From assembly GCF_964204645.1 (NCBI RefSeq), contig NC_134026.1, positions 14,976,150 through 15,040,149 on the forward strand: 64,000 bases of DNA, read 5' to 3'. The position numbers and the translations under genes are program-made. A model generated the notes under the pieces. That model saw nothing but the letters and a program-made list of their open reading frames with translations, was not told the origin of the DNA and did no database searches. This stretch comes from Tubulanus polymorphus. Lineage: Eukaryota; Animalia; Nemertea. Of this stretch, positions 30,629-55,430 are shown piece after piece (position 1 is the first letter of the stretch; the number at the start of each line of letters is the position of its first letter).

Positions 30629-30748
30629 AGTAATTGGAAAAGTAGGCTTTCAGATCAGAGTACGAAGTACGAGACACCACTCATCACCACAAGTAATTTT
30701 TTTCCTAACACTCATCACCACAAGTAATTTTTTTTCCTAATTAATGGG
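30629..30748 (+). repeat. Left TIR of element C
   Basis: Reverse complement of 46962-47081; two direct copies of CACTCATCACCACAAGTAAT(T)n. Confidence 0.95.
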
Positions 30749-31070
30749 AGATAGAAAAGCATTCTTAGCAACAATAAATAACAGAATAAAACCAGCAAAA
30801 AAACAATTTGAAATAAAAAAGTTAGTTGATGTTACAAAAGAAATTGAACATAAAATATTGAAATTAGAAAAGATAAAAACTAAATATGGAGAGAAAGTAT
30901 CAGCTAATTTAAGCTACTGTAATGTTAGTACATCGCGAGAATTTAAAGTGTTTTTACCTGATAAATGGGTTTCATTGAGTACGGAGGAATTGAAAGATTT
31001 AGTAGGATTTAAAATAATATATCATGGGAAAAATGAAGACGGTCATCATGATTTAGAAATTGTTGATTAA
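30744..31070 (+). CDS. Small Polinton protein (possible OB-fold ssDNA-binding protein)
   Basis: 108 aa; KTKYGEKV and YHGKNEDGHHDLE motifs shared with the 117-aa ORF of copies A and B. Confidence 0.7.
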   Translation: MGDRKAFLATINNRIKPAKKQFEIKKLVDVTKEIEHKILKLEKIKTKYGEKVSANLSYCNVSTSREFKVFLPDKWVSLSTEELKDLVGFKIIYHGKNEDGHHDLEIVD

Positions 31071-31251
31071 ATTTTAAAAAAAATAAATTAATAGAAATAA
31101 TGAATATCTAGAATCCGAAATGACTTATCTGGACAATTTAATTGCTCCACATAGATGGTGCCATAAACAGCACCCACACAGTGATAGACAAAAGTAGTGA
31201 GATATTCAATTAATTAAAAAAAATTATTTTTTTTTGCTTTTTTCTAAAATA

Positions 31252-31620
31252 TTAATCCATTTTTTTTATTATCAATTTTGGAATTTCAGAAGTATTTTCA
31301 TTTTTGATAGCAGTTGTTTCAGAATTATTACTATCATGAATTTTATTTGATTTCTTATACCAATTACACCCAATCAAAATGAATACAATTACAAATCCAA
31401 CTGTAAAATATAGATATTTATCAAATATTCTACTATCAGAAGGAGTAGAAATAACAATATTTTCACCATTTTTATTAACATTTTTATTACTTATTTTTTC
31501 TTTTACAGCTTTTTTATATTCTTGTGATTTAATTCCTAATTGTCGAGACCATTCAATTTGTTTCTGAGTTCTCGGTTTTTTCTTCACAGTTAATTCCTTC
31601 ACTTCTTTCACTTCGCTCAT
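31252..31620 (-). CDS. Small basic protein with one TM segment
   Basis: TAAATG start; KKKPRTQKQIEW; hydrophobic YLYFTVGFVIVFILIG. Confidence 0.7.
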   Translation of the reverse strand: MSEVKEVKELTVKKKPRTQKQIEWSRQLGIKSQEYKKAVKEKISNKNVNKNGENIVISTPSDSRIFDKYLYFTVGFVIVFILIGCNWYKKSNKIHDSNNSETTAIKNENTSEIPKLIIKKMD

Positions 31621-32158
31621 TTATTATAGAAATATTTTTACTTTCAATATTTGAAAATGTTATAACCCCGGTTGATAATAATGTCATAAATCCACCTAAT
31701 TGAAATGATAAATATCCAATCCACTTATTTAATTCAGTCATAACTAAATAATCATATTTTAAATCGGAATATAATCTATTTTCATCTTCAATTGGTAGTA
31801 TATAATTACATAATTTACTATAACCTTTTACTACATTTTCTGATATCGCTTCATTAATTTTAGCTGTTCTCGCGGCTTCATAAATCTTAAATAATCTAAT
31901 AATTTCAACTGATTTCATTGTATCTAATTCATTATAAGTTAAATTTTTATCAACAAATTTTTTACATTTTCCAGATGCTATTAATATTTCTAATTGATGT
32001 TTGCAATAAAGATAATATTCATAATCATTATTTGTTGTAACATTATTTAAAGCACCATCATCTGGAGTTAATTTTGTTTCTGTTATTCCTAAATCATCTA
32101 AAGTTTTTTCAATTGGAACATCACCATTTTTAGATTTTATTTTCTTTTCACCTCCCAT
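31553..32158 (-). CDS. Polinton hypothetical protein with hydrophobic C-terminal segment
   Basis: 201-aa ORF in AT-rich DNA with TAAATG start. Confidence 0.75.
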   Translation of the reverse strand: MGGEKKIKSKNGDVPIEKTLDDLGITETKLTPDDGALNNVTTNNDYEYYLYCKHQLEILIASGKCKKFVDKNLTYNELDTMKSVEIIRLFKIYEAARTAKINEAISENVVKGYSKLCNYILPIEDENRLYSDLKYDYLVMTELNKWIGYLSFQLGGFMTLLSTGVITFSNIESKNISIINERSERSEGINCEEKTENSETN

Positions 32159-32169
32159 TTATAAAACAA

Positions 32170-32450
32170 ATAAATTAGTTGTGTTGTTGCAACTAGAATT
32201 CAACTAGAATGTAATTAGAATTCAACTAGATTAACAAGCTAGTTGAAATATTGTTGTTTTTGTTTATTTCTTGTTAAATCTAGTTGATTTTTGTTTCAAC
32301 TACTAACAACTAGAATTCAACTAGAATGTAACTAGAATTAAAATAGATTAACAAGCTAGTTAAAATATTGTTAAATCTATTTGATTTTTGTTACAACTAC
32401 TAATAACTAGAATTCAACTAGAATTCAACTAGATTAACAAACTAATTGAA
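32170..32450. repeat. Intergenic array of CAACTAGAATT-type degenerate repeats
   Basis: Many copies of (C)AACTAGA(ATT) in higher-order blocks; a similar stretch occurs at about 48255-48300. Confidence 0.75.
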
Positions 32451-32451
32451 T

Positions 32452-33060
32452 TTAAATAAATTCATATTTAAATGGGTGTTGTAATCTAAATAGTAATTTT
32501 GATCTTTTAATATTTTTCAACTTATCCATATATTCATTATGTAAATCATGTGGAATAATATCATTTTCCTCAAGTGCATTTTTCATCGATTTTCTATCTT
32601 TATTGTAGAATAAAACTAGAAATCTAATGTTTTCTCTAAAGTCTTTAACAATTGAATTATATTTTTGATTTAAAACCCAAGTTGTTATCCCAAAATGTCT
32701 CCCAGAGAAAGCTAAATAACATAACTCACTTTCTCTAATTTTAGAATCATGTAAATTTGCGCAATCATCTATGATAAATAATGTATTTGATCCTTTATAA
32801 ATATCAATTGCTATTTTTATACAATTATCTAAATTTTCTTTTACTGTTTTAGGATCTAATATAATAAATTTATTATTCCTAGTAATATTTTTATCATAAG
32901 TTTGATTAAATTCATACGTTGGGCAAAATAATACTATATTATCAAAATAGTTTTCATAAACAGTTTCTAATAAATTTAATATGAAATAAGTTTTTCCACA
33001 ATTTGTTACGCCAGATATTAACATATTATGAGGCTCAAATATAAATAATTCTTTATTCAT
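32452..33060 (-). CDS. A32/FtsK-like DNA packaging ATPase
   Basis: Walker A GVTNCGKT, Walker B LFIIDD, SGRHFGI and the downstream Q motif. Confidence 0.93.
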   Translation of the reverse strand: MNKELFIFEPHNMLISGVTNCGKTYFILNLLETVYENYFDNIVLFCPTYEFNQTYDKNITRNNKFIILDPKTVKENLDNCIKIAIDIYKGSNTLFIIDDCANLHDSKIRESELCYLAFSGRHFGITTWVLNQKYNSIVKDFRENIRFLVLFYNKDRKSMKNALEENDIIPHDLHNEYMDKLKNIKRSKLLFRLQHPFKYEFI

Positions 33061-34191
33061 TTATATATTTTTAATTTTACTTGATAGTATCCATTCATTG
33101 AATTTATCTGGCCATCCAACCCATTTTACTAAAGAATATTTTTTTCTTTTAACAGTTTTTGTTTTTAATACTTTTTCAATTTTATATTCTTGTTCTAGAT
33201 TTTCAGTAGTTAAACTTAATTCTTCTTCGTAAAAGTAGCCATCAACTTCTTCACCATCTAAATCTTCTAATTTATAGACATATGGTTTTGTTGTTATTAC
33301 CTTTTTTATTTTGTATATTTCTCTAGTAAAATTTCGATCGTATCCTTTGTCAAATATCTTTTTATACTTAGAAATTCTAACATTTTGACCAACTTTAAAT
33401 TTAGGTTCACCAAAATCATCAACAAGAAATGCTCCATATAAATTATTCCAAACAATTTCAGCATTTTCAGGTTTTCTAGCATCAATAGGTTTCATTCCAA
33501 TAGAAGAATGATAAGAATTATTATATCCTTCTATAAATTTTGGTAAAACATCAATCCATTTATAAGTATTATTTGCTGTAAAATATTTCCACATTCTTCT
33601 TGTTCTTAATGTTCTATTAAATCGTTCAACAACTGCTGCTTTTTTATCTGATTTTGTTGAAAAATATTTAATATTATGAAAATCTAAAAGTCCATGAACT
33701 AATGAATTATCAAATTCTTTTCCATCATCAAATTGTATTTTTTCTGGTTTTAGTTTACCACCTGAAAGAAATTTTCTTAAAACATTTGATGTTTGTACAG
33801 CATCTTTTCTATAAAGTGGGAAACTCCATACATAACGACTAAAAATATCAATTATATTCAATAACCACCAATAATCATCATTATCTTTCTTAACATTTTT
33901 CATATCAATTAAATCTCCTTGCCACTGTTGATCTACATAACTTACCATAGTTTTACGAGTTTTATATTTTCTAACAATTTTTTTATGTGTTGTATATGTT
34001 GGTTGTTCTAACATAAATTCATTTATATCTTTATATTTAACTAAATTTTGTGGGATTATCTTATCTAATTTATCTTGTTTTACTTTACGCCATATATTTT
34101 TAGTAGAAGAATAAGCAACCGAACTCTCAGGGTTGTAATATAAATTTCTTAAATATTGTTCTTTAGTATTAGGAGTTTTTTTACCACTCAT
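33061..34191 (-). CDS. Retroviral-like (rve) integrase with C-terminal chromodomain
   Basis: WQGDL, QFDDGKEF, VVERFNRT; YKIEKVLK...LVKWVGWPDKFNEWI. Confidence 0.95.
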   Translation of the reverse strand: MSGKKTPNTKEQYLRNLYYNPESSVAYSSTKNIWRKVKQDKLDKIIPQNLVKYKDINEFMLEQPTYTTHKKIVRKYKTRKTMVSYVDQQWQGDLIDMKNVKKDNDDYWWLLNIIDIFSRYVWSFPLYRKDAVQTSNVLRKFLSGGKLKPEKIQFDDGKEFDNSLVHGLLDFHNIKYFSTKSDKKAAVVERFNRTLRTRRMWKYFTANNTYKWIDVLPKFIEGYNNSYHSSIGMKPIDARKPENAEIVWNNLYGAFLVDDFGEPKFKVGQNVRISKYKKIFDKGYDRNFTREIYKIKKVITTKPYVYKLEDLDGEEVDGYFYEEELSLTTENLEQEYKIEKVLKTKTVKRKKYSLVKWVGWPDKFNEWILSSKIKNI

Positions 34192-34221
34192 TTATATATC
34201 CTTAATTTTAACTTTATATTT

Positions 34222-35469
34222 CTAATATTGAATACTATCTAATTGAGAATTTACAATATTTAATTGTGCGTCAGATATAATATAAATGTGCATTTTAAAA
34301 TTTTTGATTCCTTTATTCTTTTTCATAAATAATTGTATTCCATCTTTAGTGTTCTGTAGTTTTTTTCCAGAACCATGTAATAAGTTATCTTCAGTTGTTC
34401 TAAAATCTAACCATAATGCATATTTATTACCGGTATAATAATCAATTTGATTAATGTTACAATTTTCAGATGATTTCACTTTTTCATTCATAAAATGTTT
34501 TCTAATTTCTGGCCATTGATCAATCATTCTCATTCCTTGACAAAATATTTTATTCGCTATTCCTTCGATAGTTATTTCTACTTTTGTTATTTCAGGATTA
34601 TAATAATTATCAACATTTATTGCACCATTAGAATATGTTGCAATAGTAAAAAATATTAATATACCTTTAATAGATCTTCTAGGAAAGTTAATATTCTCAT
34701 TAATTATTTCATCATTTGCATTAATAGTTACAGTTTTAAATTTATCAATATAATCATATAATAATGAAAATCCTTGATTGTATTGAGTTTGAATTGTGCT
34801 AGCAATATTTTCATTAGTTATTGTGTTATATTCTAAACATATATTCGATAATTTATAACTCATATCTTTAACAACGCTAGATAATACAATTTCATTTACA
34901 GGAGCAAATGTTATCTCAAATATAATATCTTCTTGAATTGCGTATTTATATAAAGGTGCATTATTATTTATCAATTCAAAGTCTAATGGAATTTTATATT
35001 TGCTTCCATAAATCTTTTTAATCAAATTATCTGTGGCACGAGTTACTACTGCATTATTGGCTTCAGATCTTAATTTATTATGGTTTTCCGATTGGATGCC
35101 TTGAAATATCATATTATTTCTATTTTCTTTAGTTAACCATAAATCTTTATAATGCATAAATAAATTATAATCATCTAATGAGAAAACTGTTTCCGGACCA
35201 ATCTTTATTGTTAACTTTTTAATCAAATATCTTCCAACATTATCAACAACATAATTGTTATCATGGCCAGTTACTTTTATATCGGCTGATAAATAAATAC
35301 TGTTTGGAACATAAAAAGTATTTTGTGTTAATCGAGGGATTCTAACATATAAAGTTTCATCGGGATTAATATTTGAAGGGTTATGAGTAATTATATGATG
35401 TGATCTTTCTGCTTTAATAGCATTAGATATTCTATGATTCTTCGAAGGACTTATATAACTCCCACTCAT
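34222..35469 (-). CDS. Major capsid protein (double jelly roll, hexon-like)
   Basis: 415 aa, beta-rich; NPSNINPDETLYVRIP, KIPLDF, YKLSNICLEY, YNPEITKVEITIEG and LWLDFRT..HGSG pattern as recalled for invertebrate Polinton MCPs; position next to integrase and ATPase. Confidence 0.8.
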   Translation of the reverse strand: MSGSYISPSKNHRISNAIKAERSHHIITHNPSNINPDETLYVRIPRLTQNTFYVPNSIYLSADIKVTGHDNNYVVDNVGRYLIKKLTIKIGPETVFSLDDYNLFMHYKDLWLTKENRNNMIFQGIQSENHNKLRSEANNAVVTRATDNLIKKIYGSKYKIPLDFELINNNAPLYKYAIQEDIIFEITFAPVNEIVLSSVVKDMSYKLSNICLEYNTITNENIASTIQTQYNQGFSLLYDYIDKFKTVTINANDEIINENINFPRRSIKGILIFFTIATYSNGAINVDNYYNPEITKVEITIEGIANKIFCQGMRMIDQWPEIRKHFMNEKVKSSENCNINQIDYYTGNKYALWLDFRTTEDNLLHGSGKKLQNTKDGIQLFMKKNKGIKNFKMHIYIISDAQLNIVNSQLDSIQY

Positions 35470-35513
35470 TTATTTAACAAAAAAATTAATTATTTATTTT
35501 TTGATATCATGGT

Positions 35514-36950
35514 TTACTTGATATTTTTTGATATCATATTTACTAAACCAAAAATAATAGCACTTACAACTGTAATTAAAAATAAAATAATATGTTCAGC
35601 AGCAATGTTAATAATGTTTCCTGCAGATTTCAATATAAAACCAACAATTGAAGCAATAACTCCTGGTAAAGCTGCAGCAGATTTCTTTGATAGTTCCCAT
35701 AAATATTTTGCTAATTTCTTTAAACCATCCTTAACTTTATCTTGTATAGAATTATTACCTGGAGGTTTATCTGGTTTGTTAGGAGTGGGAGTAGGAGTAG
35801 ATTTCAAAGCATTTGATATAGCTAAACCTATTGTTGTAAATAACATAGTAACAGATGTTAGAATTGAAAGAATTGTTATTCCTTCTAATTTAAATAATAA
35901 TTTTATTCTGTCTTTCAATGATATTTTAGAATCTGGTTTTATCAACAAATCTTTAAAAATAACTTTTAATCTATTAATATTATAATCATATGATTTTAAC
36001 AATAATTTAATTTCTTCTTTTTGTAATTCTATGTTATATTCTAAATCATCTTTTTCTTTTTCTAAACGTAATTCTTTTTGCCTATATTCTATTTCATCAA
36101 TTACTTGATGATCTAAATCAGACTTTAGTTGTTCTATTTCTTTATTTTTATCAGTTAATTCTTTTTCTAAAATTCTAATTTTAAAATCTCTTATACTTTT
36201 ATTATGTGCAATTTTATCACATGCAAGTCTTATACTAATAATTTCTCTAATTGCTTTATCAGAAAATATATTTAAATCTTCTAATTGTTGATTTGTTGCA
36301 TCAAGTAATCCATTTGGTAAAAGTTTTACAGTTTGAACTTTATTTGATTTAAGTTTACTATTTTTGGAAGTTATATTCTGTTCAGAAGTTGTTTCTGTTT
36401 CTAAATTTTCATTAATTATCTTAAAAAATTTAGCATTTCTTTGTTTAAATTCTTTTATATTATAATCTCTTTCTTCTTGTGTAACATCAATTATAGCATC
36501 ATTTTTTATTTTCTTAATTCTAGATTGTTCTAATAAATTAAAAGTTGATTGTGTTATTATTTTATCACTATTTTTAAGATTTGAAATCTTAAAATAATAG
36601 TCGCCTTTCAATTTCCAATAATATTCACCATTTAAAAATTTTAAATCTTCTACTAAATGATCCATACCTTTATTTGTTATATTGAAACCAGATTTTTCTA
36701 ATATTGGTTTAAATTTATGAATAATTTCATTATAATTGTATTCTTTTTCTGTTATTTCTGGTACTTCATTTTCAATACTTATCTTTGAACGTGCTTTGTC
36801 AATAAATTGGGGTGTAGTTAAATTAGAATTATATGCTGATTCATTACCATCATTAAAACTTGTTTCATCAAAATCAGGTGGTTGTTCATCAGTTATACCA
36901 GGTTCATCAAAAGGATCCATTCCAATATCTTCTACACCTTCTACATCCAT
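35514..36950 (-). CDS. Coiled-coil protein with C-terminal hydrophobic/TM helices
   Basis: 478 aa; acidic N-terminus, heptad-rich middle, GITILSILTSVTMLFTTIGL, AAALPGVIASIVGFIL, IILFLITVVSAIIFGLV. Confidence 0.8.
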   Translation of the reverse strand: MDVEGVEDIGMDPFDEPGITDEQPPDFDETSFNDGNESAYNSNLTTPQFIDKARSKISIENEVPEITEKEYNYNEIIHKFKPILEKSGFNITNKGMDHLVEDLKFLNGEYYWKLKGDYYFKISNLKNSDKIITQSTFNLLEQSRIKKIKNDAIIDVTQEERDYNIKEFKQRNAKFFKIINENLETETTSEQNITSKNSKLKSNKVQTVKLLPNGLLDATNQQLEDLNIFSDKAIREIISIRLACDKIAHNKSIRDFKIRILEKELTDKNKEIEQLKSDLDHQVIDEIEYRQKELRLEKEKDDLEYNIELQKEEIKLLLKSYDYNINRLKVIFKDLLIKPDSKISLKDRIKLLFKLEGITILSILTSVTMLFTTIGLAISNALKSTPTPTPNKPDKPPGNNSIQDKVKDGLKKLAKYLWELSKKSAAALPGVIASIVGFILKSAGNIINIAAEHIILFLITVVSAIIFGLVNMISKNIK

Positions 36951-36966
36951 TTATATAATAAAAAAA

Positions 36967-38268
36967 TTAAAATTTAAAATATAATATTCCTCCGATTACA
37001 ATTCCTATACAAGTTATAGCTAATTTAGTATTTTCATGGGATTTATTATCATCATTTAGTTTAATTATATCATGTTGAATATTATCAGTTCTATTATTTT
37101 CTGATGTATTATAATCTTTTATTTTAGAATCATTATTTAATTTAATATTCTTAGTTTTAGTTTCTGTTGATTGAATGTGTTTTTTATTTTTTTCACCTTC
37201 CATTAATTTTGGAGCAGTAATAATCTTTTTATTTATATCATTCAATCCAAATGAATTATTTATTGTTGCAGTTTTAATTAGATTATTATAACCAATTATA
37301 TTTCCCATCTTCAATACTAAATCATTAGAAATAATTAATAGATTAGGGCCTATACAATAATTAAGTCTTACATGAGATTTATCTAAATAATTTTGATATC
37401 TTATAATGTTTTCTGGAATCGATCTATTTTTATCATTATGAATTGAATCTTCAAATAAAACTTTAAACTGTTTCTGCGCATCGAATGAAGTGTTATCATT
37501 TCCAATTATTGGGGATCTTGTTTCAACTTGAGCGCCTAAAATACATATCAAATAAATTCTAATAGATTGATTTATTCTTTGTATACCTGATTTTGTAAAA
37601 CCTTCACCATTTTCTAAAATGAAATTAACCCAACCATTATTATTATCAATTTTATAATTATGATAGGCTGAAATTCTATGCATATAATCAATTCTTTTTA
37701 TTTCATACTCTTCACCAACACCTTGCAATTTACCATGCGCTCTGAAATCGGAATTAATATTTATATTAAATTCATTACATATTTTATAAAACTTAGATAT
37801 ATTAATATTATTATCCAATTCTTTAAAATATTTAGACCCAGGTAAAGGACATTCTAATTCATTTAATATTATTCTGATTTGAAAATATGTGTGAAATCTA
37901 AATATTGTGTGAATTAATTTTAAATCAGAATACTTCAAATTTTTATCTAAGTTATTTAAATGATCATTCCAACTTATTCCACATCCTGTTGTTGCACAAT
38001 AAACAGCAAAATTTAATTGATTCTGCCAATATTTCATATTAGATTTTACTTTATATATATGATATTCATCTCGAGTAAAAGTAACTTCATATGTATTAAA
38101 TATATTTTCCATTTTAGAAATAAAAAACTGTGATTCATTAACATAAATTTCTAAATTAGTTAATGAATTTAAAACTATATTTTTATATGTAATATTTTTC
38201 TTAAAATCTATTGCCGGAATATTATATTTAATTGATTTATTATATTGGAAAGCTTTTGGAAACCCCAT
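36967..38268 (-). CDS. Conserved Polinton protein (WQNQLNFAVYCATTGCG motif), C-terminal membrane anchor
   Basis: 433-aa ORF, conserved in copy B; ends LAITCIGIVIGGILYFKF. Confidence 0.8.
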   Translation of the reverse strand: MGFPKAFQYNKSIKYNIPAIDFKKNITYKNIVLNSLTNLEIYVNESQFFISKMENIFNTYEVTFTRDEYHIYKVKSNMKYWQNQLNFAVYCATTGCGISWNDHLNNLDKNLKYSDLKLIHTIFRFHTYFQIRIILNELECPLPGSKYFKELDNNINISKFYKICNEFNININSDFRAHGKLQGVGEEYEIKRIDYMHRISAYHNYKIDNNNGWVNFILENGEGFTKSGIQRINQSIRIYLICILGAQVETRSPIIGNDNTSFDAQKQFKVLFEDSIHNDKNRSIPENIIRYQNYLDKSHVRLNYCIGPNLLIISNDLVLKMGNIIGYNNLIKTATINNSFGLNDINKKIITAPKLMEGEKNKKHIQSTETKTKNIKLNNDSKIKDYNTSENNRTDNIQHDIIKLNDDNKSHENTKLAITCIGIVIGGILYFKF

Positions 38269-38284
38269 TTATATAACTAAAAAA

Positions 38285-38719
38285 TTAATAATTTATTAAT
38301 TCTTTTAATAATTTATCTTGTTCTTCAACTGTTATATGACCATTTAAACTTATTATATAATCTAGTGTGTTCTTTAATTTATTAATTTCTTTTATATTAG
38401 TTTTAATTTTTTCTTTATTACTTTTTATATTTAATTTTGAACTTATACCAGTTAAAACACTTGAACTTAATCCTAACACACCAATTGATATAGCTAAAGG
38501 TGTTAATGGACTGAATATTGCTAGAAATGTTATTACAGAACTAATTGTAACCGAACCACTTATAATCAAATAATATATAATTTTACTTTTTAAATATTTT
38601 TTCTTTTTTATCTTTAAGTCACTTTCAAATTCTAATATTTGTTTTTCTAAATATGTTTTTAATTTAGTTTTATTTATATCATGAGGAATAATATCAATAT
38701 TATCAACTTTATCTTCCAT
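38285..38719 (-). CDS. Two-TM membrane protein
   Basis: 144 aa; paired hydrophobic helices flanked by Lys-rich coils. Confidence 0.75.
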   Translation of the reverse strand: MEDKVDNIDIIPHDINKTKLKTYLEKQILEFESDLKIKKKKYLKSKIIYYLIISGSVTISSVITFLAIFSPLTPLAISIGVLGLSSSVLTGISSKLNIKSNKEKIKTNIKEINKLKNTLDYIISLNGHITVEEQDKLLKELINY

Positions 38720-38738
38720 TTATTTAGAATAAAAATTA

Positions 38739-39161
38739 CTAATTAGTAAACTTATAAGCAACAAATATAACAATAACAGTTCCACCTAAAATCCAAATTA
38801 TTTCATATTTCTGTTGTTCTTTACTTGGGGTATAATAATCTGATAATTTAGGTTTGTATAGATGTAATTTTTCTTTATTTGTTACTGCGTTATATAAACT
38901 CATTGCATCATCAACTGATTGAAAATCTCTATGTGAAATCTTCTGATCATATAATTCTTTATTGATGTAATCCATATAGTTTTGTCTCTTTTCTCTATAT
39001 TCTTCTGCAGCTTTATTGTATTTCTCTAACGCTAAGTTATGTCTTCTTTGTTCTCCTAATGAACTATTTTTATCAATATGTTTAAATAAATAACCACCAC
39101 CAGTAAATGCTAAAGCGTTAACAATTGCCGATCCTATAATAGTTATAATTGCAGAAGCCAT
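38739..39161 (-). CDS. Small membrane protein (NALAFTGGGYLF motif)
   Basis: 140 aa; conserved in copy B. Confidence 0.8.
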   Translation of the reverse strand: MASAIITIIGSAIVNALAFTGGGYLFKHIDKNSSLGEQRRHNLALEKYNKAAEEYREKRQNYMDYINKELYDQKISHRDFQSVDDAMSLYNAVTNKEKLHLYKPKLSDYYTPSKEQQKYEIIWILGGTVIVIFVAYKFTN

Positions 39162-39185
39162 TTATTTAACAAAAAAATTATGCAT

Positions 39186-39407
39186 TTATATGGGAGGAAT
39201 ATATTTTTGTTTTTCCAAATAATCAATAGTTAAATTAGATAAAGTAACTGCTAATGTTAATTTTAGAATATCATTTATATCAAATCTATCAACATTAACA
39301 CTTCCCATTTTGAATACTTTTTTTAATACCATTGAATAACCAACAGTTCCAACTGATAGTAATGCGCCATTATATAATCCAGTTATTATTCACTTATTAT
39401 CACTCAT
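39186..39407 (-). pseudogene. 73-codon small membrane protein with premature stop (not in the ORF track)
   Basis: MSDNK*IITGLYNGALLSVGTVGY...DYLEKQKYIPPI; codon 6 is TGA here but TGG in copy B (start 26770). Confidence 0.75.
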
Positions 39408-39764
39408 TTATTTATCAAAAAAATTACTATCATCAAAATATTTAGTTATCTTATTTATGATTAATTCAACATTTATTTTATTACTAGTTTCATTTGTATA
39501 TATTTCAATTATTATTTTTTTAATATCATCGATGATAAAATCTTCATCTAATTCATAAAATCTTAAAGATTCTCTAATTAAATTAGTAATCTTTTCTACA
39601 TTTAAAGTTTCTTTATCTATTGTTGTTTCATACTCAAATGTTGTTTCATTAGAAAATGTTATATTTTTGATATGTGTTATTACATCATTAATGTTAAATT
39701 TCATTTCTTTCTCACGTTTAAAATCAAATCCAAAACATATACTCGGTCCAACAGTTATATTCAT
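39408..39764 (-). CDS. Polinton hypothetical protein
   Basis: 118 aa; homolog in copy B. Confidence 0.72.
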   Translation of the reverse strand: MNITVGPSICFGFDFKREKEMKFNINDVITHIKNITFSNETTFEYETTIDKETLNVEKITNLIRESLRFYELDEDFIIDDIKKIIIEIYTNETSNKINVELIINKITKYFDDSNFFDK

Positions 39765-39780
39765 TTATAAAGGTGAAAAA

Positions 39781-40539
39781 TTACTCTTTACATCTTATAA
39801 CTAATTCATAAATTACAGGAAAGTTATTCAAATCAATTAAATAACCATTATGATTTCTTATTTCTAATTTAAAATTATTGAAATGTGGGATACAAGGTTT
39901 GAAATCACATTCAGTTAAATTATAATTTATTTGAGTTCCAAATTGTTTGACATTTTTTAATGGTAAAATATTTAATAAACCAGAATTACAAATTGTATCT
40001 TTAGTTGCTTCAAATATTTTTGTAGGATCGATTAAATTGCAATAAATATAAAAGTGTGTAAAAGGTATTATATTTGAGTTACCTTCTGCGTATGCTGTAA
40101 CGGTATCTGGTGCAATTCCTAACAGTTTAGCTAAAGGTTTTCTTATTGTAAATTTAAATTGTTCGTCATTAGCTAACCTAATCTTTATTTTATTAGAACT
40201 AGCACTTTTTAAAATTCTAATACTAAATCCGGAATCACTTCCTAATTTAGCTCGAGCTTTTCTATTAATTTCTTGTGTTAATGTATCTAAATTATATTAT
40301 CCTGGTTTTAAATATATAAAAAACCATTTATTCCTTTTTTTGTAAAAGATTGAAAAAATTAAATGTTCTAGACTTTTATCCGATATATTATAAAAAGAAT
40401 TACATAAACTTATATTAACTAATTTTAAATCTACACAATTCTTAAATTCTTTATCTAATTGTACTAATAAATTATGAGATTTATAATTTGTAAGTTTTCT
40501 AGAATCAACAAATATTCTGTATTCTTTTAATTCTACCAT
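39781..40539 (-). pseudogene. Minor capsid (penton-like single jelly roll) gene with an in-frame stop
   Basis: 253 codons; PG*YNL (TAA at 40297-40299) corresponds to PGLYNL (TTA) in copy B; NSFYNI and FYIYCNLI-type motifs. Confidence 0.72.
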
Positions 40540-40607
40540 TATTTATAACATAAAAAAATTACCGCTCATCACTAAAAATTAATCTTAATAAAATTTTTCC
40601 TTAATAA

Positions 40608-41906
40608 ACGGATGAGAAGATAGCATGCGAAATTTGTGGTGAACTTCTAAGAAAAAGTAATATGGCTCGACATATGAAAAAACATGATGAAAATTATAAA
40701 CCCCCTAAAATAAACTGTCCAAAATGTAATAAATTATTCTCAAGAAATTATGTTAAAAAACATTCAGAGAAGTGTAGAATTAATGGCGCAACGGCTAATG
40801 TTGATAGTAATTCTGCTGAAGTTGAACCTGAAGTTATTTGGAAAACACCTTTCTTATTCTATGATAAGGATAATATAAAAGATCATTTCTGTGAGCCTTG
40901 TCAAGTAAAATATAGCCCTGAAAATATAGAAGATTGGGAGAATCATCAATTTCGTAAAGCACATATAGATAAAATTTCTAATAAATTTGAAACTGAATTC
41001 AATGAAAGAAAAAATAATTTATTAGAAAAAATAAAATATGAGAAAACGTTACCAGATAATAAAGAAACAGTTGAAAAGTTAGAAAAACAATATAATGAAT
41101 TAACAAGAAAAACATATTATTGTAAATATTGTAAATTGATTATTACAACAAGTAATTCAAATCTACATAATAGAACAATAAAACATAAAGAAAACGTAAG
41201 AAAATACCAAGAGCTTAATGAAGATCTATTACCAAGAAATTATAAACAAAAATGCCCACAATGTAGTTATGCGACCTTAAGGCAAGAAGGTACTGTGTTA
41301 TTTTGTGTTGAATGTGGATGGCAAAAGAATTTATGGGGTGAAGAAAAAACTAGAGATTTTCTCATAGAACCAAAATTAAATTATCTAGATGAAATTTTTA
41401 AAATATTTTCTATAGAAGATCATACACCAGAATATATGCAATGGCTTGAAAAAATGAAAATAATAGAAAATAAAAATGGTGAAATAACTAAAAAAGATAT
41501 TATAAAAACAATTATTCCACCAACATTTAACACAAAACAAAAGAAAATGTATTTATATTTATTATTTAACGATTATTATGAAAAACCTAAATTAACAGAA
41601 GAAGATATGGAAAATATAAAAAAAATATTTAAACAAATATTAATGTATCATTTGGAAAATAGAATAACAGATTCAATAAATTATGAATTCTTTTTAAATA
41701 AGATTGTAAATTATTTAAACCTAGATATTATAATTCCATTTGATGAATTAACAAACAAAAAGAAACAAAGAGAGCGAGATGAAATGTGGAACAAGATAGA
41801 ACTTTATTTAAATGAGAAAAATGGAATGGAAGAAGAACCTGAACAATTAAATGAAAATGAAGAAGCCAATAGTGATTTCGAGTTTGATGATATAGATCCA
41901 TTTTAA
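40608..41906 (+). CDS. Multi-zinc-finger protein with VLTF3-like (poxvirus A2/NCLDV late transcription factor) C-terminal region
   Basis: Several CxxC/HxxxH fingers; ribbon CPQC...EG..LFCVECG; PKLTEEDMENIKKIFKQI, INYEFFLNKI and KQRERDEMWNKI resemble VLTF3 motifs. The frame extends upstream of the track start (40662) to TAAACG at 40608, completing a CEIC..H..H finger. Confidence 0.68.
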   Translation, partial: TDEKIACEICGELLRKSNMARHMKKHDENYKPPKINCPKCNKLFSRNYVKKHSEKCRINGATANVDSNSAEVEPEVIWKTPFLFYDKDNIKDHFCEPCQVKYSPENIEDWENHQFRKAHIDKISNKFETEFNERKNNLLEKIKYEKTLPDNKETVEKLEKQYNELTRKTYYCKYCKLIITTSNSNLHNRTIKHKENVRKYQELNEDLLPRNYKQKCPQCSYATLRQEGTVLFCVECGWQKNLWGEEKTRDFLIEPKLNYLDEIFKIFSIEDHTPEYMQWLEKMKIIENKNGEITKKDIIKTIIPPTFNTKQKKMYLYLLFNDYYEKPKLTEEDMENIKKIFKQILMYHLENRITDSINYEFFLNKIVNYLNLDIIIPFDELTNKKKQRERDEMWNKIELYLNEKNGMEEEPEQLNENEEANSDFEFDDIDPF

Positions 41907-44900
41907 TAACCATAAGGTAATGTTTTTATACCATCATCTGAAATATGCCTTTTATCATCAAATGGATTTAAACTAGTTTTTTCAACTTCATTAATGTACA
42001 TCTCATGATCTTCTGATCTTAAACAATTCATCTTGTGTTTCATTACAATTGATTTATATAAACACTTTATATAATCTTGAAATTCTATATGTTTATCAAC
42101 CACATGTTTTGTTATTCCTTTTAACTTTTTAGCTTCATGATCTTTTGTTCTGTAACTATACATTTTACTTCTTATCCCAACAAATTCAGTCATTTCATCA
42201 CCTCCTAATTCATCTTTAAATTTACAAGGAATCTTTTTATTATCATTGCTAAATAGTTCATGATCTTTAGGATAATTGCTAAAATCAAAATGATGTTTTA
42301 ATGTTTTTAAGTCTTTTGTTATGTCATTTGTCTTGATTTTTAGTATGTACGCATCCGTATTTTTTTGGATTAATGGGAACCCAGAATTGAATGTTCCATC
42401 ATCTGTTGATAAATCATAAACATAGTCAGTTGGGTTATATATTTCAAATAAATCTTTAACTTCTTCAGTTAAATCTTTTTCTACATGCCTTAAATTAAAG
42501 CAATTTGGTTTAGATTTAATCAATCCAATATTCATATTGAAGCCTAATGAACTGCATAACACATTTAACCCACTTATTGCACATTTTCCATTCTGTGCAA
42601 AGGTTATCGTTTTATCCTTTATAAATTTTTTAGTACCATCGGCTGCGTAGAACCCAATGAAGAACCATTTTCTAAGATTATATTCTGAATTTAATATATA
42701 ATCTGGTACTATTTTTTCTTTAGTTGAAGTATTACTTTTCACTATTGCATGAATATAGAATTCATCATTATATTTTATAGCAAAATCTTTAGGATTATTT
42801 ACAAGTATTCTATAAACCGCGGATGATTTCATAACATCCATGATTCTAAATGTTTTATGTGAATAAACTTCTTCACAGAATTTCTTAATTCTTTCTAATA
42901 ATTTTAAGTCTTGATTGCATAAATACCAACAATATTTATTACCCCAAACATATTTATACACACCTGCTGAACCATCACCCATGAAAAATCCTTTGATAAA
43001 ATATTCTTTTTCTTCCAATGTTTCGGGTTCTATATTATAAATATTATCAATTATTTCATCAAATGACATATGATTCATTCTTGGGAAAAATCTTTTATGT
43101 AATAATTCATCTCCAATTTTTATATCAGTTGGTTTTATTTCATCACCATTTCGTTTAATTAAACTGTGGTCTTCAGTAACATCTACAAATCCTAATTTAG
43201 TTCTAACTCTATAGATTTTCTTATTTGTTTTATGTCTAATAATATTCTTTAATTTTTTCCATCCATTTCTTGTCCAAACATCTATTAAACCATTTATTTG
43301 TATTAGTTCTTTTTCACCATATGAAATATAAGATTTATTTTGATTAGGAATTATTTCTGAAATTCTTCTAATTAATATTTGGTTATTGTATTTTAATAAT
43401 ATTGGGGTGTCAGCTGTTACAGAATCGAAGTATAGAATTTCTATATGTTTTTCCCCAAACAATGGTTGTAATACATTGTAATAAAAATCATACATTAATA
43501 ATTTTGATATTTCTAAAACTGTTGAACCAATGAAAATGGGTTTATTAAATTTCATTGACGTTCTTTTTAATTTTACTGCTGTTAAATAATCTTCAAATCT
43601 TTTATTTCCTAAATGTCTAGGACTTGATTGTAGGTGTCTCAATCGTTCAGAATTATTTACTAATTCAATATCATTTCTATTTCTAATATTTTCACATGTT
43701 TTACCATAAAAACTATTGTTCATTAATTTGAAGAAATCTTTTTCAAAATCTGTTTTTGATATGGTTCTCTGTTGAGTATTGAAATCTATATATTTTTCTA
43801 ACCACTTTGATTGATTAAATTCAATATATCTATGTACTTTCTTTAATTTCATTCCTTGTTTTAGATAAAATTTTAACATTCTATAATGAACAATATAATT
43901 ATATTTATTATTTTGAGTAAGTATTAATTTTTCTGTAAAAACATGATCTTTCGGTTTTATTTTCTTCTGGTATTCACTTAAATAACTATCATCTACAGTT
44001 AAATGTTCTGGGCAATAAGGTAAGTTTCTTGTTTTAAACTTTATGTTATCAGGATATTCTAAATCAACTACAAAGAAATAACCAATTGGTGCTTCATCTT
44101 CTAAACTCATAATTGCGCTTTCCCAATTAGTTTTATCATCATTTTCAACTTCTGTTAATATAAAATTTTTATATGGTTGAGGTTGCATCATTGCCCAACC
44201 ATATAAATTATTGGCGTCAATATATAATAATTTATATTCATCATTTGCTTTAAAATACCTATCTCCCATAACACCACTAATTCCACCTCTAATTGAGTTT
44301 TCAAATAATAAAACCATATCTGGTTCTTTTAATAAATCTAATTCTACATTTGTATATTTTAAACCACATTGCCAGGTTAAACCAGGACTTGAATAACAAT
44401 AACAAGGATCAACATTAAAATGATTCAAATTAACTTCTCTAAATTTTTCAAATATGTCAGCTAATATCATAACATCTGATTTTAAATATAAATCAACTAA
44501 TTCACCATGATTTTTCATCTTAAAATGGTTCCAAATATTTAATGTTCTATCAAAAACTTCGTCTTTCACATACTCCTCTTTTAATTTATCATAAAATTGA
44601 TCTTTTAATAATTCTGTTACATTAAAATCATCATGTGTTTTATAAAATGAATAAGGAATTGCGCCTTTATATCTCAGTAATTTAAAATCTTGTTCATTTG
44701 GATAATAATATCGAGTTATAACAAAATCATTATCAACTAAACTTTTTGATAAATTATCTAATGAACTTGCTAGAAATCTATAAGAATCTAAAAATCTAAT
44801 GCAACCAAATTGAAATGAAATATAATTTTCAGATGTTTTAGCTAATAGTTTAAAATCATATTTTCTTACATTTGCTTCATTCATAGCATTATATTCTTCT

Positions 44901-46966
44901 ATTTCTTGATTAATTGCACCCAATTTTCCTGATAATTGTTTTATAAATAGATGGGTATCATATCCTGATAAATTATGAAATAATATTGGTACAAAATTTA
45001 CTTTTTTAGCTTGTAAATTGCAATCTTCATGAGCAGCTCCACGATATTTTGAATTCAAATGATCATGATCTCTAACTCTTTTATCAAATGAATAAAAACG
45101 TTTTTCACAATAACAACAATGAGTTGCATAATTAAAATCAATTTCATCTTCTTTTGTCATAACTATTCTTTTATTTTTGTTTAATAATTTTGCAAAATCA
45201 CTTTCTAATTCAATAATTTTATCACAAAAATCATTAACTACATTTTCACCTCTAAAAGAAATATATTGACTTTCATATAATTCAGGATAATTTGATTTTA
45301 TGTAAATTCCATAAGCAGCAGCTCTTTGATGAACTTTTTTAATTGTATTTATAATTGGCGGGTCTTGTATTGTGTCTTCATTTAATTCATTTCCTTTATC
45401 CATTGATTTTAATAATTGCTTTTTGTTATATATTTCTTTTCTATCTTGATCAGTTAATTCTTTATTCAACGATTCAAAATCCCCATAAATTACAAATGGA
45501 ACAATATTTTTAAATTTATGATTAGTAAATTTCAATTTATAATCTTTTTCTGTTGGCATTATTAATTTACAAAAATCTTTATTATCACATAATTCTTTAT
45601 GTTTTAATAATGTATTCTCAGTCATAAATTTGGATAAACATTTTCTACATAGATAAATTTTATTATGATGATCACTTTCTGTTCTAAAGAATAAATCAAT
45701 TTGTTTTAACCACATATAATGTTCATTTTCATCTTTTTTGTAATATAACAAATCTATAGCATTTTCATCATCATAATATTCTGTTAAATATAAAGCTTCC
45801 AATGTATAATCTTTAATATTTTCACCTTTTGTCTTTGGTAATTGCATTAATTCGAATACATTTATTTTTAAATTATTAACTTTTTCTATTTTAGGAATCA
45901 TTTTTATAGTTACTGGATATTGATCAATTTTATATAATGTTTCATATTTCCGATAATCTGTTATTCTACAAACATTTTCCTGTGTTGGATGTAAACAACT
46001 AATAATTGACCATAGAAAACATTTATTATCTTCATTTTGAACATTTATTACTGCTTTTGTTGTAAACGGTAATTTGATATAACTTGATGCTTTCATATCC
46101 TTTTCTGTTGTAAAGTTTGAATCATTTTTAAACATTTTATTACTTTTTGATGTTTTATTCCTTTTTGTATTATAAACATTTAAATCTAAATATATAATTT
46201 CATTCAATGTTAAGCCAGAACCCTCAAAATATCTTTCTTCAATATGACGTTTAAATTCATTTAATATTTTTTCTAACTTCTCTTTTATTTGTGTTTTTGA
46301 AATTATTTCTTCAGAGTGTGTTTGAATATTATAATCCATTTTTTCTTCTGACTTTATAAAACTTACTTTCCCAGAGATACTAATTTTTGGATATTCAACA
46401 TCTGTTATCAAATCTAGTATTTTTTCTATTATTTCATTAAATTTACTATAATCTTCTATTGTTGTACCTTTAAAAAATCTAAATATAATAGCTGCAGGAC
46501 CAATTTTACTATGTAATGTTTCTAAGATTTCAATTGTATCTTTTATTTCTAGTGAATCAATATAATTTCTAATATTTTCCATGTAAGGTTTATTTGAAAT
46601 GGATTTAGTTTTTGAAGTTGATTCTTTTACTTGTTGAGGTTTATCATCAAAATAATCTATTCCTAAAACATTATTTCTCAAATTTTGATGGTGTTTTTCT
46701 GTTTCGAGATGTTTATTATAATTCCTTTTTGTTATAAATTCATCACAAACTTCACATTTTATTTCATCCACATTCATATTTTCTAATCGTTCTTTTCTTT
46801 CAATGGAATTTTCTGGAGTTTCAAAATCTATAACATTTTTTATATGATTTGAAGATTTTTCATGTTTAGATTTATTAGATTTATCGATGTATTTTTTACA
46901 ATATTGACAATAATATTGATTTTTATTGATATTATTGTTTTCTAGTTGGTGTTCATTCTCCCCCAT
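41903..46966 (-). CDS. polB: Protein-primed family B DNA polymerase precursor (1687 aa) containing an intein
   Basis: Two N-terminal Zn fingers; OTU-like DNKCF...EHY; ExoI YGDFES; HNH/EndoVII-like CCYC..RDHDH..AHEDCN; ExoII FHNLSGYD; ExoIII YLKSDV; IRGG; motif A YIDANNLY; motif B KLMNNSFYGK; split motif C YFD/TDA; KLKG. Confidence 0.97.
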   Translation of the reverse strand: MGENEHQLENNNINKNQYYCQYCKKYIDKSNKSKHEKSSNHIKNVIDFETPENSIERKERLENMNVDEIKCEVCDEFITKRNYNKHLETEKHHQNLRNNVLGIDYFDDKPQQVKESTSKTKSISNKPYMENIRNYIDSLEIKDTIEILETLHSKIGPAAIIFRFFKGTTIEDYSKFNEIIEKILDLITDVEYPKISISGKVSFIKSEEKMDYNIQTHSEEIISKTQIKEKLEKILNEFKRHIEERYFEGSGLTLNEIIYLDLNVYNTKRNKTSKSNKMFKNDSNFTTEKDMKASSYIKLPFTTKAVINVQNEDNKCFLWSIISCLHPTQENVCRITDYRKYETLYKIDQYPVTIKMIPKIEKVNNLKINVFELMQLPKTKGENIKDYTLEALYLTEYYDDENAIDLLYYKKDENEHYMWLKQIDLFFRTESDHHNKIYLCRKCLSKFMTENTLLKHKELCDNKDFCKLIMPTEKDYKLKFTNHKFKNIVPFVIYGDFESLNKELTDQDRKEIYNKKQLLKSMDKGNELNEDTIQDPPIINTIKKVHQRAAAYGIYIKSNYPELYESQYISFRGENVVNDFCDKIIELESDFAKLLNKNKRIVMTKEDEIDFNYATHCCYCEKRFYSFDKRVRDHDHLNSKYRGAAHEDCNLQAKKVNFVPILFHNLSGYDTHLFIKQLSGKLGAINQEIEEYNAMNEANVRKYDFKLLAKTSENYISFQFGCIRFLDSYRFLASSLDNLSKSLVDNDFVITRYYYPNEQDFKLLRYKGAIPYSFYKTHDDFNVTELLKDQFYDKLKEEYVKDEVFDRTLNIWNHFKMKNHGELVDLYLKSDVMILADIFEKFREVNLNHFNVDPCYCYSSPGLTWQCGLKYTNVELDLLKEPDMVLLFENSIRGGISGVMGDRYFKANDEYKLLYIDANNLYGWAMMQPQPYKNFILTEVENDDKTNWESAIMSLEDEAPIGYFFVVDLEYPDNIKFKTRNLPYCPEHLTVDDSYLSEYQKKIKPKDHVFTEKLILTQNNKYNYIVHYRMLKFYLKQGMKLKKVHRYIEFNQSKWLEKYIDFNTQQRTISKTDFEKDFFKLMNNSFYGKTCENIRNRNDIELVNNSERLRHLQSSPRHLGNKRFEDYLTAVKLKRTSMKFNKPIFIGSTVLEISKLLMYDFYYNVLQPLFGEKHIEILYFDSVTADTPILLKYNNQILIRRISEIIPNQNKSYISYGEKELIQINGLIDVWTRNGWKKLKNIIRHKTNKKIYRVRTKLGFVDVTEDHSLIKRNGDEIKPTDIKIGDELLHKRFFPRMNHMSFDEIIDNIYNIEPETLEEKEYFIKGFFMGDGSAGVYKYVWGNKYCWYLCNQDLKLLERIKKFCEEVYSHKTFRIMDVMKSSAVYRILVNNPKDFAIKYNDEFYIHAIVKSNTSTKEKIVPDYILNSEYNLRKWFFIGFYAADGTKKFIKDKTITFAQNGKCAISGLNVLCSSLGFNMNIGLIKSKPNCFNLRHVEKDLTEEVKDLFEIYNPTDYVYDLSTDDGTFNSGFPLIQKNTDAYILKIKTNDITKDLKTLKHHFDFSNYPKDHELFSNDNKKIPCKFKDELGGDEMTEFVGIRSKMYSYRTKDHEAKKLKGITKHVVDKHIEFQDYIKCLYKSIVMKHKMNCLRSEDHEMYINEVEKTSLNPFDDKRHISDDGIKTLPYGY
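42359..43423 (-). other. Intact 355-aa intein with LAGLIDADG homing endonuclease (pol-c site)
   Basis: Residues 1182-1536: block A SVTADTPI, block B VTEDHS, block C FIKGFFMGDGS, block E FFIGFYAADGT, block F YVYDLST, block G IQKN followed by +1 Thr. Confidence 0.95.
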
Positions 46967-47081
46967 TTATTAGGAAAAAAAATTACTTGTGGTGATGAGT
47001 GTTAGAAAAAAAATTACTTGTGGTGATGAGTGGTGTCTCGTACTTCGTACTCTGATCTGAAAGCCTACTTTTCCAATTACT
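46962..47081 (-). repeat. Right TIR of element C
   Basis: Ends ...TTTTCCAATTACT at 47081, followed by the TSD GGCTTC. Confidence 0.95.
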
Positions 47082-49230: not shown

Positions 49231-49344
49231 TTATTTAAGAGAAAAATTAAACAGTTTATAAAATATTTGCTAGTTTTTAATTAAATATTTTATAATCATT
49301 TTAAAGATATTAAACTTTTAAATGATTAAATCAAATAACAATTA

Positions 49345-51880: not shown

Positions 51881-51998
51881 GAGATATTCTTCTGGAACCA
51901 AAATTAAAATATCTAGATGAAATTTTTAAGATATTTTCTATGGAAGATCATACTCCAGAATATAAGCAATGGCTTGAAAAAATGAAAATGATAGAAAA

Positions 51999-54233
51999 CA
52001 AGAGCCCCAAGGGGCACAATGGCCAGCCTGTCAGATTTGCTTTATATAAATGATGTAATCTGTGGGTTATATTTATCAATATACACTCCCTGCTCAATAT
52101 CATTTACATAGTAAAATCGTGTGTTAACACAGACAGCAGGAACGAATGTAATATAGAAATACTAAGTTATTGTATTGTTCAACGCCCCCTGGTGGCCATA
52201 AAAAAAACCAATGAGCTTGAAACTCACCTCGATCATAGAACATGTCATGAGCTACAACTTTCCAATTGATTATAGTAGCAAAATATGCTTAAGTATCAAT
52301 TATGATGTGGAAAAACTTTTTTTCCACCTACGAATGAGTACTGATGACCCCAAGATGGCTGCCAAGTGCGTCATAATTGCCTGGTCAAAAATACCCTCTC
52401 GGATATAAAAGATCCCTTTCCAAAGAATACCCATTACAAATTGCAATGAAACATGGCGCACCATTAGAAAGCTACAGTACTCAGAATTCAGGCCAAAATT
52501 GACATTTTTGGGAACAAAAAAGGTCACAGTACGGCCATCTTGAGTCCGATCGACTCAATTTTTCTCATGCCGATGGGCCCTCGGGGGATACAAATATATA
52601 CGACTGATCAAGCTTATTGATAAAAGTGTCTTCAAAATTTCCCTCGAAAACTTCAAAAATGTGTAAAAAGTGCTGATTTTGGCGAACAACAATGGCTGCC
52701 AGTCGGCCATCTTGAATCTGACAGGGCCAGTTTTTGGCCTGAAGATGTGTCTAGGGTAGATACACGTATAAAACAAATATCAAGACATTACCTTGAAGCG
52801 TCTTCAAAACTTTGGAACTCTCACGAACTATCTAGATGGTTATCTCTCGACCTCAATAGCTTCAAGACCCATCTCAAAACAACTTTGTTCCATGCAGCAT
52901 ACCATTAACTCTCGGAAAGCGAATTGTATTTAACATTTTTTGGCAGAATAAAATTTGATTGAATTTGCAATTCGGGCACATGGCTAATTAGCATATCAAG
53001 GTCATACACCCGATTTGGTAAAACCTTTTTTTCGCGAACCTTGCGCGATTGTCAAGGATGAATTTTCTGTAGAGCAAATAAAAATTCCTCCCAAACACCA
53101 AATCAACTAAAGATTTCATAGAAATCGATCTTGAAATACAATTTTAAATCATAAAATAAAACCCGGAAGTAAAACAGTAGACGATACCGCGGATTCACGT
53201 GAACACCTGATTTCTGTAAACGAAATGTTGGTTGTGACAAAATTGTTCAGACGGTTTTAGGTGGTAATAAGTACGGAAACGTAACGACCATGGTCGACTT
53301 ATTCGATGAAATCAGGCCTACGTGATATCCAAATTTTGACTTTTTTATTCTCCAGACCTCCCTGATATAGAAATAGAAAAGTTTGGTGGTACGAAAGTGC
53401 AATCACAGCGCCGACGGGGACAGAGCCGATTCAAAGATCGGCGGAGTGAGAATTGAGGTGGACGAACACGAAGAAGTAGGCTATTGCGCTACTTGAATCA
53501 CGAAAACTCCTGGCGCGGCCCCGACGCTTTTCGTTGATTAAGTAATACAAATATCATGCAATGGGTTTTCACAATCTACCGCTGGTATTTACCGGATTTC
53601 AATATCACTCCAAAATTCAAAGAAACCTCGAAGTATCGAACCGGAACACTTCCGGTAGATATCCGCGGCTGCCCAACCGGGAAACTTATTTGTTTCAATA
53701 GATATTGATAGGATCCATCATCTTCACCCGTCAAGGGATTCGAACCCACTAAGCTAAAGCCATGCCAGAATCGGGTCGGGCCAATCACAGCGCTTGTAAC
53801 AAACCACATTAGGCTTCTGTGGAATTTCCCAGTAAATGGGCCAATCAGCGAAAACGTAGCGAACGCGGAAGTATTGTCGCGTGTTGATACATGACGTCAT
53901 GCGCAAAAGCGCCAGTAATGAAATCGCGATAATTCACGTGAACAGCTGCTGATATTTTCAGATAAACCAATCACAGGGAAGACACAACTTCCTGATTGGC
54001 TGATAAAAATTGAAATTTTCCCGATTTAACTTTCGTGAAAAATGCAGAAAACATTTTTATGAGACCCTATTTCAAAATTCTGCTCGCTTCGATTCCGAGA
54101 ATGGATTACGCTTAAATACGTGATTTGTTCGAATATGCCCTCACTTGGCAAGCAAAAGAGCCTTTTGTGTGGAAACCATGTCATTTAAATTCGCTCCATT
54201 TGTATAGTAATAGGCTCAGCCTACGGCTGGCCT
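51999..54233 (+). mobile_element. Non-autonomous Helentron-like insertion (possibly composite)
   Basis: Cleanly interrupts the VLTF3-like gene in an A run without a clear TSD; ends with a short hairpin (AGCC-TAC-GGCT); the start resembles the 19396 element end. Confidence 0.55.
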
Positions 54234-54310
54234 AATAAAAATGGTGAAATAACTAAAAAAGATATTATAAAAACAATTATTCCGTCAACATTTAACACAC
54301 AAGAAAAGAA

Positions 54311-55065: not shown

Positions 55066-55430
55066 AGAAATGAAAATGTATTTATATCTATTATTTAACG
55101 ATTATTATAAAAAACCTAAATTAACAGAAGAAGATATGGAAAATATAAAAGAAACATTCAAAAAAATATTAAGATATTATGTGGATAATAGAATAACAGA
55201 TTCAATTAATTATGAATTCTGTTTGAATAAGGTTGTAAATTTTTTTAACATAGATATTATAATTCCATTTGATGAATTAACGAACAAAAAGAAACAAAGC
55301 AAGCTACATGAAATGTGGAATAATATAGAACTTTATTTAAATGGAAAAATTAAATGGAAGAACCTAAACAATTAAATCAAAATGAAGAAACCAGTAGTTA
55401 TTTCGAGTATGATGATCTTGATTTTATGGT

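Follow-up and report, generated by a model that had tools for sequence, protein, structure and literature searches.

A Polinton of Tubulanus polymorphus with poxvirus-type gene starts and a zinc-finger-fused VLTF3-like factor

We analysed a stretch of 64,000 nucleotides of Tubulanus polymorphus DNA (the window) and found that a complete Polinton within it carries a VLTF3-like late transcription factor fused to zinc fingers, and that most of its genes start at a motif resembling the post-replicative promoters of poxviruses. The reading towards which we lean is that this Polinton, with its poxvirus-A2-like factor, would depend for its transcription on the RNA polymerase that a co-infecting poxvirus-like helper supplies, with the TFIIB-like factor of the element assisting. 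Because the genes start at poxvirus-style TAAATG signals, it is likely the helper's polymerase that transcribes the element.

The Polinton and its gene set

Polintons, or Mavericks, are marked by terminal inverted repeats, AG...CT ends and a 6-bp target duplication. The 16,453-bp element at 30629..47081 has all of these, with the duplication present on both sides. Its left repeat (30629..30751, ~123 bp) is 97.6% identical to the right repeat (46959..47081, with the alignment extending to 47082). The left repeat carries a near-copy of the gene-start motif described below, and the right repeat carries the gene-start motif of the polymerase. In reads of run X7, a joint skips 16,459 bases, which corresponds to the element plus one duplication.

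The expected gene set is also present, namely a protein-primed DNA polymerase B (pPolB), an rve integrase, an A32 ATPase and a major capsid protein. The polymerase (41903..46966, – strand) has 1687 aa and bears an intein; PF03175 matches the sister copy at 2474-3694. The capsid protein (34222..35469, –; 415 aa) gives a weak Capsid_N match and has 765 homologues, and the gene content is common to related loci. Pfam identified the integrase, which has a chromodomain (33061..34191, –), and the A32-like packaging ATPase (32452..33060, –; E 2e-13). Five more genes, encoding 478, 433, 144 (SLATT-like), 140 (lipase-like) and 118 aa, lie at 35514..39764 (–), and two conserved genes of 201 and 122 aa with no assigned function lie at 31252..32158 (–). 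All of these begin in TAAATG.

As originally predicted, no RNA polymerase subunit gene was detected among the ORFs of the element; neither an A1 nor a G8 gene was found in it, and Rfam gave 0 matches over 30000-56000. In the published accounts that we drew on, phospholipase occurs often in Maverick-Polintons of group 2 and an adenovirus-like cysteine protease is a group 1 trait. The ORFs of the element, several of which are unnamed, gave no match to this protease, a possible likeness to group 2. Group 2 is otherwise recognised by the clade of its capsid and ATPase; the match of the lipase-like ORF is weak (E 0.025) and our capsid tree had no group 2 reference sequences.

The intein of the polymerase (42359..43423, –; 355 aa, HINT and LAGLIDADG) sits within the catalytic Asp motif. 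It has 54 homologues, 8 of them with detectable pPolB flanks and 30 carrying PF00136, and it is missing at loci whose polymerase spans the site, for example L001-L003, L010, L026 and L027. Intein invasions of Polinton pPolBs in general are described in the part of PMC11071308 that we used. The Polinton inteins form one group (SH-aLRT 98) separate from the inteins of RNA-primed PolBs, and we rejected the idea that the intein is a sign of a present helper because of this separation.

The complete copy adjoins copy B, and run X7 reads contain the element family in abundance. Several more of its members, decayed or reduced to fragments, lie at 1-5.8, 16.0-17.6, 22.0-30.5, 50.1-51.5 and 55.0-60.6 kb. 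The window also holds a decayed LTR retrotransposon (integrase, RT, RNase H) at 6060-11000 and a tandem array with a 24-bp period at 49247-50167.

A divergent VLTF3 with four zinc fingers

The fusion frame (40608..41906, +) is open for 432 codons with its stop at 41904-41906, and the motifs on which the original prediction was based are present in it. Four zinc fingers of C2H2, C2HC and U1-like types (40626..41189, +) begin at residues 7, 37, 95 and 172; Pfam matches the fourth to zf-U1 at E 1e-6 and the first three weakly. These are followed by a Cys4 zinc ribbon (41253..41315, +; residues 216-236 counted from 40608) that aligns with the N-terminal ribbon of poxvirus A2. A helical domain identified by Pfam and the structure model (41340..41819, +), with a predicted cyclin/TFIIB-type fold, comes next, and an acidic tail follows, up to 41903 (+). 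The predicted fusion thus held, with four fingers ahead of the ribbon, and they are kept in independent elements (P0001/P0005/P0006, 46-47% identical, and P0002, 33% identical).

The assignment to VLTF3 also stood up in Pfam. Three C-terminal pieces matched Pox_VLTF3 (PF04947) at 26.3, 27.0 and 28.4 bits (E 7e-6 to 2e-6), above the gathering cut-off of 25 bits. With the full 432-residue frame, Pox_VLTF3 was absent among the 17 Pfam families listed, and the frame gave no Pfam match to the ribbon profile PF08792. Alignment to poxvirus A2/VLTF3 (PF04947, PF08792) with hhalign covered the ribbon and helical domain over 190 columns (P 97.8%, with a query profile that held two pox-type rows), and a 10-residue core motif is near-identical. 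Unlike A2, the window protein has ~200 extra N-terminal residues with the four fingers, an acidic tail and only ~20% identity, and its gene sits in an integrating 16-kb element. In the ESM Atlas, the top score was 0.96 and Pox_VLTF3 clusters made up 27 of the 30 matches. Other searches were negative: a word-index homologue search with the VLTF3 half returned 1867 candidates, 0 of them significant; no loci came up in IMG/VR for the VLTF3 half, alignment A1, the capsid or alignment A2; and no VLTF3 match was found in NCBIfam, PDB sequences or phage records.

An AlphaFold model built with an 11-row alignment had a pLDDT of 84 and a pTM of 0.73, compared with a poor pLDDT of 49 for the single sequence. 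Against BFVD, the best match of the aligned model was cowpox VLTF3 (E 2.4e-6, TMq 0.65, 202 columns), and the 10 matches at E <= 0.001 were mostly VLTF3 proteins of many large DNA viruses. Poxvirus A2 proteins held ranks 1, 3 and 5, a ranking biased by the two pox-type rows in the alignment; with the unaligned model they were the top three matches (E 0.008-0.1). When the helical part was compared to solved structures, Orc6, cyclins, TFIIB and Brf occupied most of the top rows at Z 5-7, where values below 8 may reflect merely a common helical arrangement. Foldseek against the PDB placed TFIIB chains at ranks 1-3, below significance (E 0.17-0.26). These fold matches, from a comparison that the original prediction had proposed, are modest yet consistent with a TFIIB-like layout. 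The model favours this reading of VLTF3, and neither sequence nor fold searches of the PDB yielded a solved relative. Judged from profiles and the model, the protein is a true VLTF3, though a divergent one, and its predicted layout is TFIIB-like.

The first codon of the frame is not Met in the window, and the first ATG, at 40662, lies within finger 1. All run X7 reads over the first codon (140 of 140 in one count, 165 of 165 in another) differ from the window copy, so the missing Met is a peculiarity of this copy. In the relative L004, the fusion gene begins with Met at the matching place behind the same motif. The motif upstream of the window frame (40589..40610, +) has the layout and spacing seen at other genes of the element. 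The deoxynucleoside kinase gene of L004 adjoins its Met-started fusion gene; such kinase genes occur in two relatives in the TAAATG clade (L004:10340-10981, –, Pfam E 2e-31; L009:2895-3377, –, Pfam E 8e-31). A 254-aa gene of L004 is fragmented in the window (39800-40539, –), where just an 80-aa ORF is left from its start.

Affinity of the factor

A phmmer search of 1.84 billion proteins gave 4 matches, and the sole conventional VLTF3 among them (P0004) bears a pox A2L ribbon. A 10-residue pattern derived from the window retrieved 40 IMG/VR loci, of which 38 are pox-type A2 (GC 23-66%). A profile built only from Polintons scored a median of 47.5 bits on these 38 compared to 15.9 bits on 74 giant-virus VLTF3s, a comparison in which the pox set was chosen by the window's own motif and the giant-virus set, drawn from 120 pattern loci, is narrow. 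With the selecting motif masked, the medians were 21.4 (pox) and 6.8 (giant). One AT-rich giant-virus VLTF3, L196, scored level with the poxviruses at 45.8 bits and, after masking, reached 32.9 bits versus a pox maximum of 28.1.

In an unrooted VLTF3 tree, built as the original prediction had proposed, with 11 of the 38 pox rows and 14 of the 74 giant rows left after removal of near-duplicates, the Polinton rows fell on long branches outside the pox clade (97/99, unmasked), with L018 and L022 on the same side. In topology tests, which left out P0003, L018 and L022 and are subject to the same long branches and lack of a root, a grouping of the Polintons with two insect-pox-like rows was not rejected (p-AU 0.34) and a grouping with L196 was rejected (p-AU 0.003). 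In these sequence and model comparisons the factor seems closer to poxvirus A2 than to most of the giant-virus VLTF3s sampled, and we consider an origin of the Polinton VLTF3 on the pox side probable.

The gene is optional within the family

In the window, copies A and B carry a different gene, of 117 aa, in the VLTF3 slot (25285-25638, +; 1-363, –). Read depth in run X7 drops at 40540 from ~300 to ~110 per direction, with 336 loose ends. Because of the other gene in copies A and B and this fall in depth, we conclude that the VLTF3 gene is optional within this Polinton family. The 117-aa gene has no Pfam match and is 31% identical to a 108-aa gene that starts in the left repeat (30744-31070, +; compare L004:125-469). 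Run X9, presumed to be RNA, placed 3 pieces, none of them on the VLTF3 gene, which speaks neither for nor against its transcription.

The original prediction also held that copy E has the same gene. Copy E (51883..55422, +) is a disrupted 3' fragment of the gene: residues ~250-430 are present in four tblastn pieces that are 68-88% identical and interrupted by two insertions and one frameshift, while its fingers and ribbon were not found in the window.

One alternative is that the gene was picked up from a large DNA virus as passive cargo and plays no part at present. It is missing from copies A and B, lacks its Met start in the window copy and is broken in copy E, and the third codon position shows no excess of the common differences between copies (6/10/7 over the three positions at 23 places, a tally dominated by differences private to the window copy). 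Against this, independent elements keep open frames with the fingers, ribbon and VLTF3 residues at 33-47% identity, and in both the window and L004 the gene lies behind the element's own start motif. We regard passive cargo as very improbable.

Gene starts of poxvirus type

Of the 14 ORFs of at least 100 aa in the element, 11 begin in TAAATG. The other three comprise the VLTF3 frame as opened by its internal ATG, a shadow ORF in antisense and the left-repeat gene with its near-copy of the motif. As a background, 46 of 645 ATGs lie in TAAATG, and a Markov simulation using the same ORF rule gave 8.3%. We therefore rejected the possibility that the motif is an artefact of ORF calling, and translational coupling was also rejected because a stop-start overlap occurs in only 1 of the 11 TAAATG starts. 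Upstream positions are constrained too: TAA is at –16..–14 in 10/11 genes (in two of which it is the previous stop codon) versus 2/35 internal TAAATG sites, T is at –11 in 11/11 versus 14/35, and T is at –10 in 9/11 versus 11/35. In the sections of PMC11980589 and PMC5294985 that we used, late promoters of vaccinia carry TAAATG across the start codon together with a conserved T ten bases upstream, and intermediate promoters have an AT-rich block 15-19 bases upstream. The motif of the element combines features of both; the late-promoter match is to the published poxvirus consensus and not to an identified helper. In the main-text passages of the literature searched, no description of poxvirus-type promoters in Polintons was found.

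We compared relatives using a capsid tree of 44 rows from 43 capsid loci (300+ aligned residues, no stop). In the clade of the window capsid (SH-aLRT 99), TAAATG opens 34 of 44 homologous genes in the 14 other loci; by contrast, a 17-locus clade has it at 0 of 56 genes, including loci at 26-28% GC. These tree-based counts are the ones to be used, since a cut at 47% capsid identity (36/51 versus 17/126 genes) was chosen post hoc. The motif also occurs in two other small capsid clades, and the capsid tree needs 4 changes. TAAATG starts were seen as well at L042, L043, L044, L052, L056, L065 and L002, which are in separate capsid clades or have unplaced capsids. Pfam was run on 30 of the 115 unassigned ORFs plus 26 chosen ORFs.

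Short VLTF3-like genes of 165-169 aa, without a ribbon, occur in other Polintons (L018:6543-7052, L019:4427-4936 and L022:5082-5579), with Pfam E-values of 6e-4 and 4e-5 that are below the cut-off. TAAATG starts are found at 0/7 genes in L018 and 0/5 in L022, so the presence of VLTF3 and TAAATG starts are not tightly coupled. The short genes score higher by phmmer on giant-virus than on pox VLTF3 and are unstable in trees; from their sequences, they are possibly a second capture. A 281-aa VLTF3-like protein (P0003) and a 54%-identical capsid (P0031), whose longest contigs share a length of 12,994, may lie on one element.

Copies without the VLTF3 gene keep their TAAATG gene starts, so the starts are independent of the element's own factor. 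This bears on a rival explanation in which the protein partners host RNA polymerase II in the nucleus as a finger-steered, TFIIB-like initiation factor, TAAATG is the element's own initiator and there is no helper. Integration requires the nucleus, the predicted fold resembles TFIIB (at Z 5-7, and not significantly in Foldseek), mriyaviruses encode VLTF3 without an RNA polymerase according to the part of PMC11253617 consulted, and the short VLTF3-like genes belong to Polintons without TAAATG starts. However, the starts persist in gene-less copies and their motif fits published poxvirus post-replicative promoters, and in several relatives outside the clade TATA-like words take its place upstream (17/126 genes versus 2/51). 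We consider transcription by the host polymerase doubtful. When used as a nuclear-versus-cytoplasmic test, AATAAA and GTRAG depletion did not separate the groups clearly; AATAAA in coding strands was at 1.11x in the window, 0.88x in its clade, 0.96x in the TATA clade and 0.48x in the L018 group.

The original prediction proposed that the factor redirects the transcription machinery of either a helper or the host. The TAAATG starts and the pox-leaning factor add to the helper side, although they do not settle the choice.

Comparison with known systems

The original prediction regarded VLTF3 as foreign to the canonical Polinton gene set. Its presence is less surprising than this implies, because VLTF3 has been reported in a polintovirus subgroup from corals, according to the passage of PMC11131425 citing Krupovic and Koonin 2016. 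The parts of other sources that we used also place it in MELD viruses (PMC8502044, Fig. 6 legend) and in polintoviruses (10.64898/2026.06.19.733378). VLTF3 in Polintons is not uniformly recognised in these sources; the part of PMC11253617 consulted describes it as undetectable outside Nucleocytoviricota. The window element resembles VLTF3-carrying polintoviruses in having VLTF3 as an accessory gene and SLATT-like and lipase-like neighbours. Unlike our element, the portions of those reports that we compared mention no finger fusion, poxvirus affinity or poxvirus-type promoters. Parts of 10.1101/2024.03.23.586382, 10.64898/2026.10.13.758929 and PMC12220804 were also in the literature compared.

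Three other systems are relevant, each compared with the portions of its report that we used. The entomopoxvirus-associated Polinton-like viruses (Barth et al. 2024, PMC11296320) are proposed hyperparasites of poxviruses, linked to them by occlusion bodies. Like our element they are Polinton-class, and some are near the group 2 capsid clade; unlike here, VLTF, TAAAT, motif, transcription and RNA polymerase each occur 0 times in the text consulted. Mavirus and endogenous virophages (10.64898/2026.07.28.741278) are likewise integrated elements with pPolB and integrase whose gene starts copy the late promoter of the helper. The window element differs in its poxvirus-type motif, Polinton-type capsid and own late factor, and its dependence on a helper is putative. 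Mriyaviruses share a small genome, VLTF3 and the lack of an RNA polymerase, but they have VLTF2 and an HUH endonuclease, are without a DNA polymerase and are inferred to be nuclear (PMC11253617).

A possible helper-dependent cycle

By analogy with mavirus, the integrated element may be silent until a helper infects the cell. If so, its genes would be read by the post-replicative machinery of the helper, which the VLTF3 of the element would join, and the fingers and acidic tail might bias that machinery toward element DNA. Because sister copies have the same starts without the gene, VLTF3 would be an optional booster in this cycle.

An alternative that also assumes transcription by a helper is that VLTF3 is a decoy that blocks the late transcription of the helper, making it an antiviral weapon for element and host. 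The strong divergence of the protein from pox A2, its extra domains and the optional nature of the gene would suit such a role, and virophage-type elements often damage their helpers in the accounts we consulted. Yet both the ribbon and the helical domain are complete over the aligned columns, and a block of late transcription would be expected to silence the late-type starts of the element too. We think a decoy unlikely, and favour a factor that assists the helper's polymerase on element genes.

A broader proposal, which we hold tentatively, is that poxvirus-like viruses have an endogenous virophage in a widespread lineage of Polintons. Host TATA promoters would have been replaced by poxvirus post-replicative ones, and some members would have captured the TFIIB-like late factor of their helper and fused fingers to it to pull the helper polymerase onto their own genes.

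Since VLTF3 in Polintons is already published, the gene alone is not new. What is added here is the fusion to fingers, the lean of the factor toward poxviruses and the poxvirus-type starts across the clade; together they turn the dependence of a Polinton lineage on poxviruses into a specific proposal that can be tested. This bears on the question of whether Polintons of the animal type are nuclear viruses that act autonomously or rely on large DNA viruses, and the system offers handles in a short fixed promoter motif, a captured late factor and clades of relatives that lack the motif and can act as controls. If the proposal is true, transcriptional wiring extends virophage-style parasitism to poxvirus-like helpers. 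The elements would then point to poxvirus relatives still to be discovered in marine hosts, and could serve as an inherited antiviral defence.
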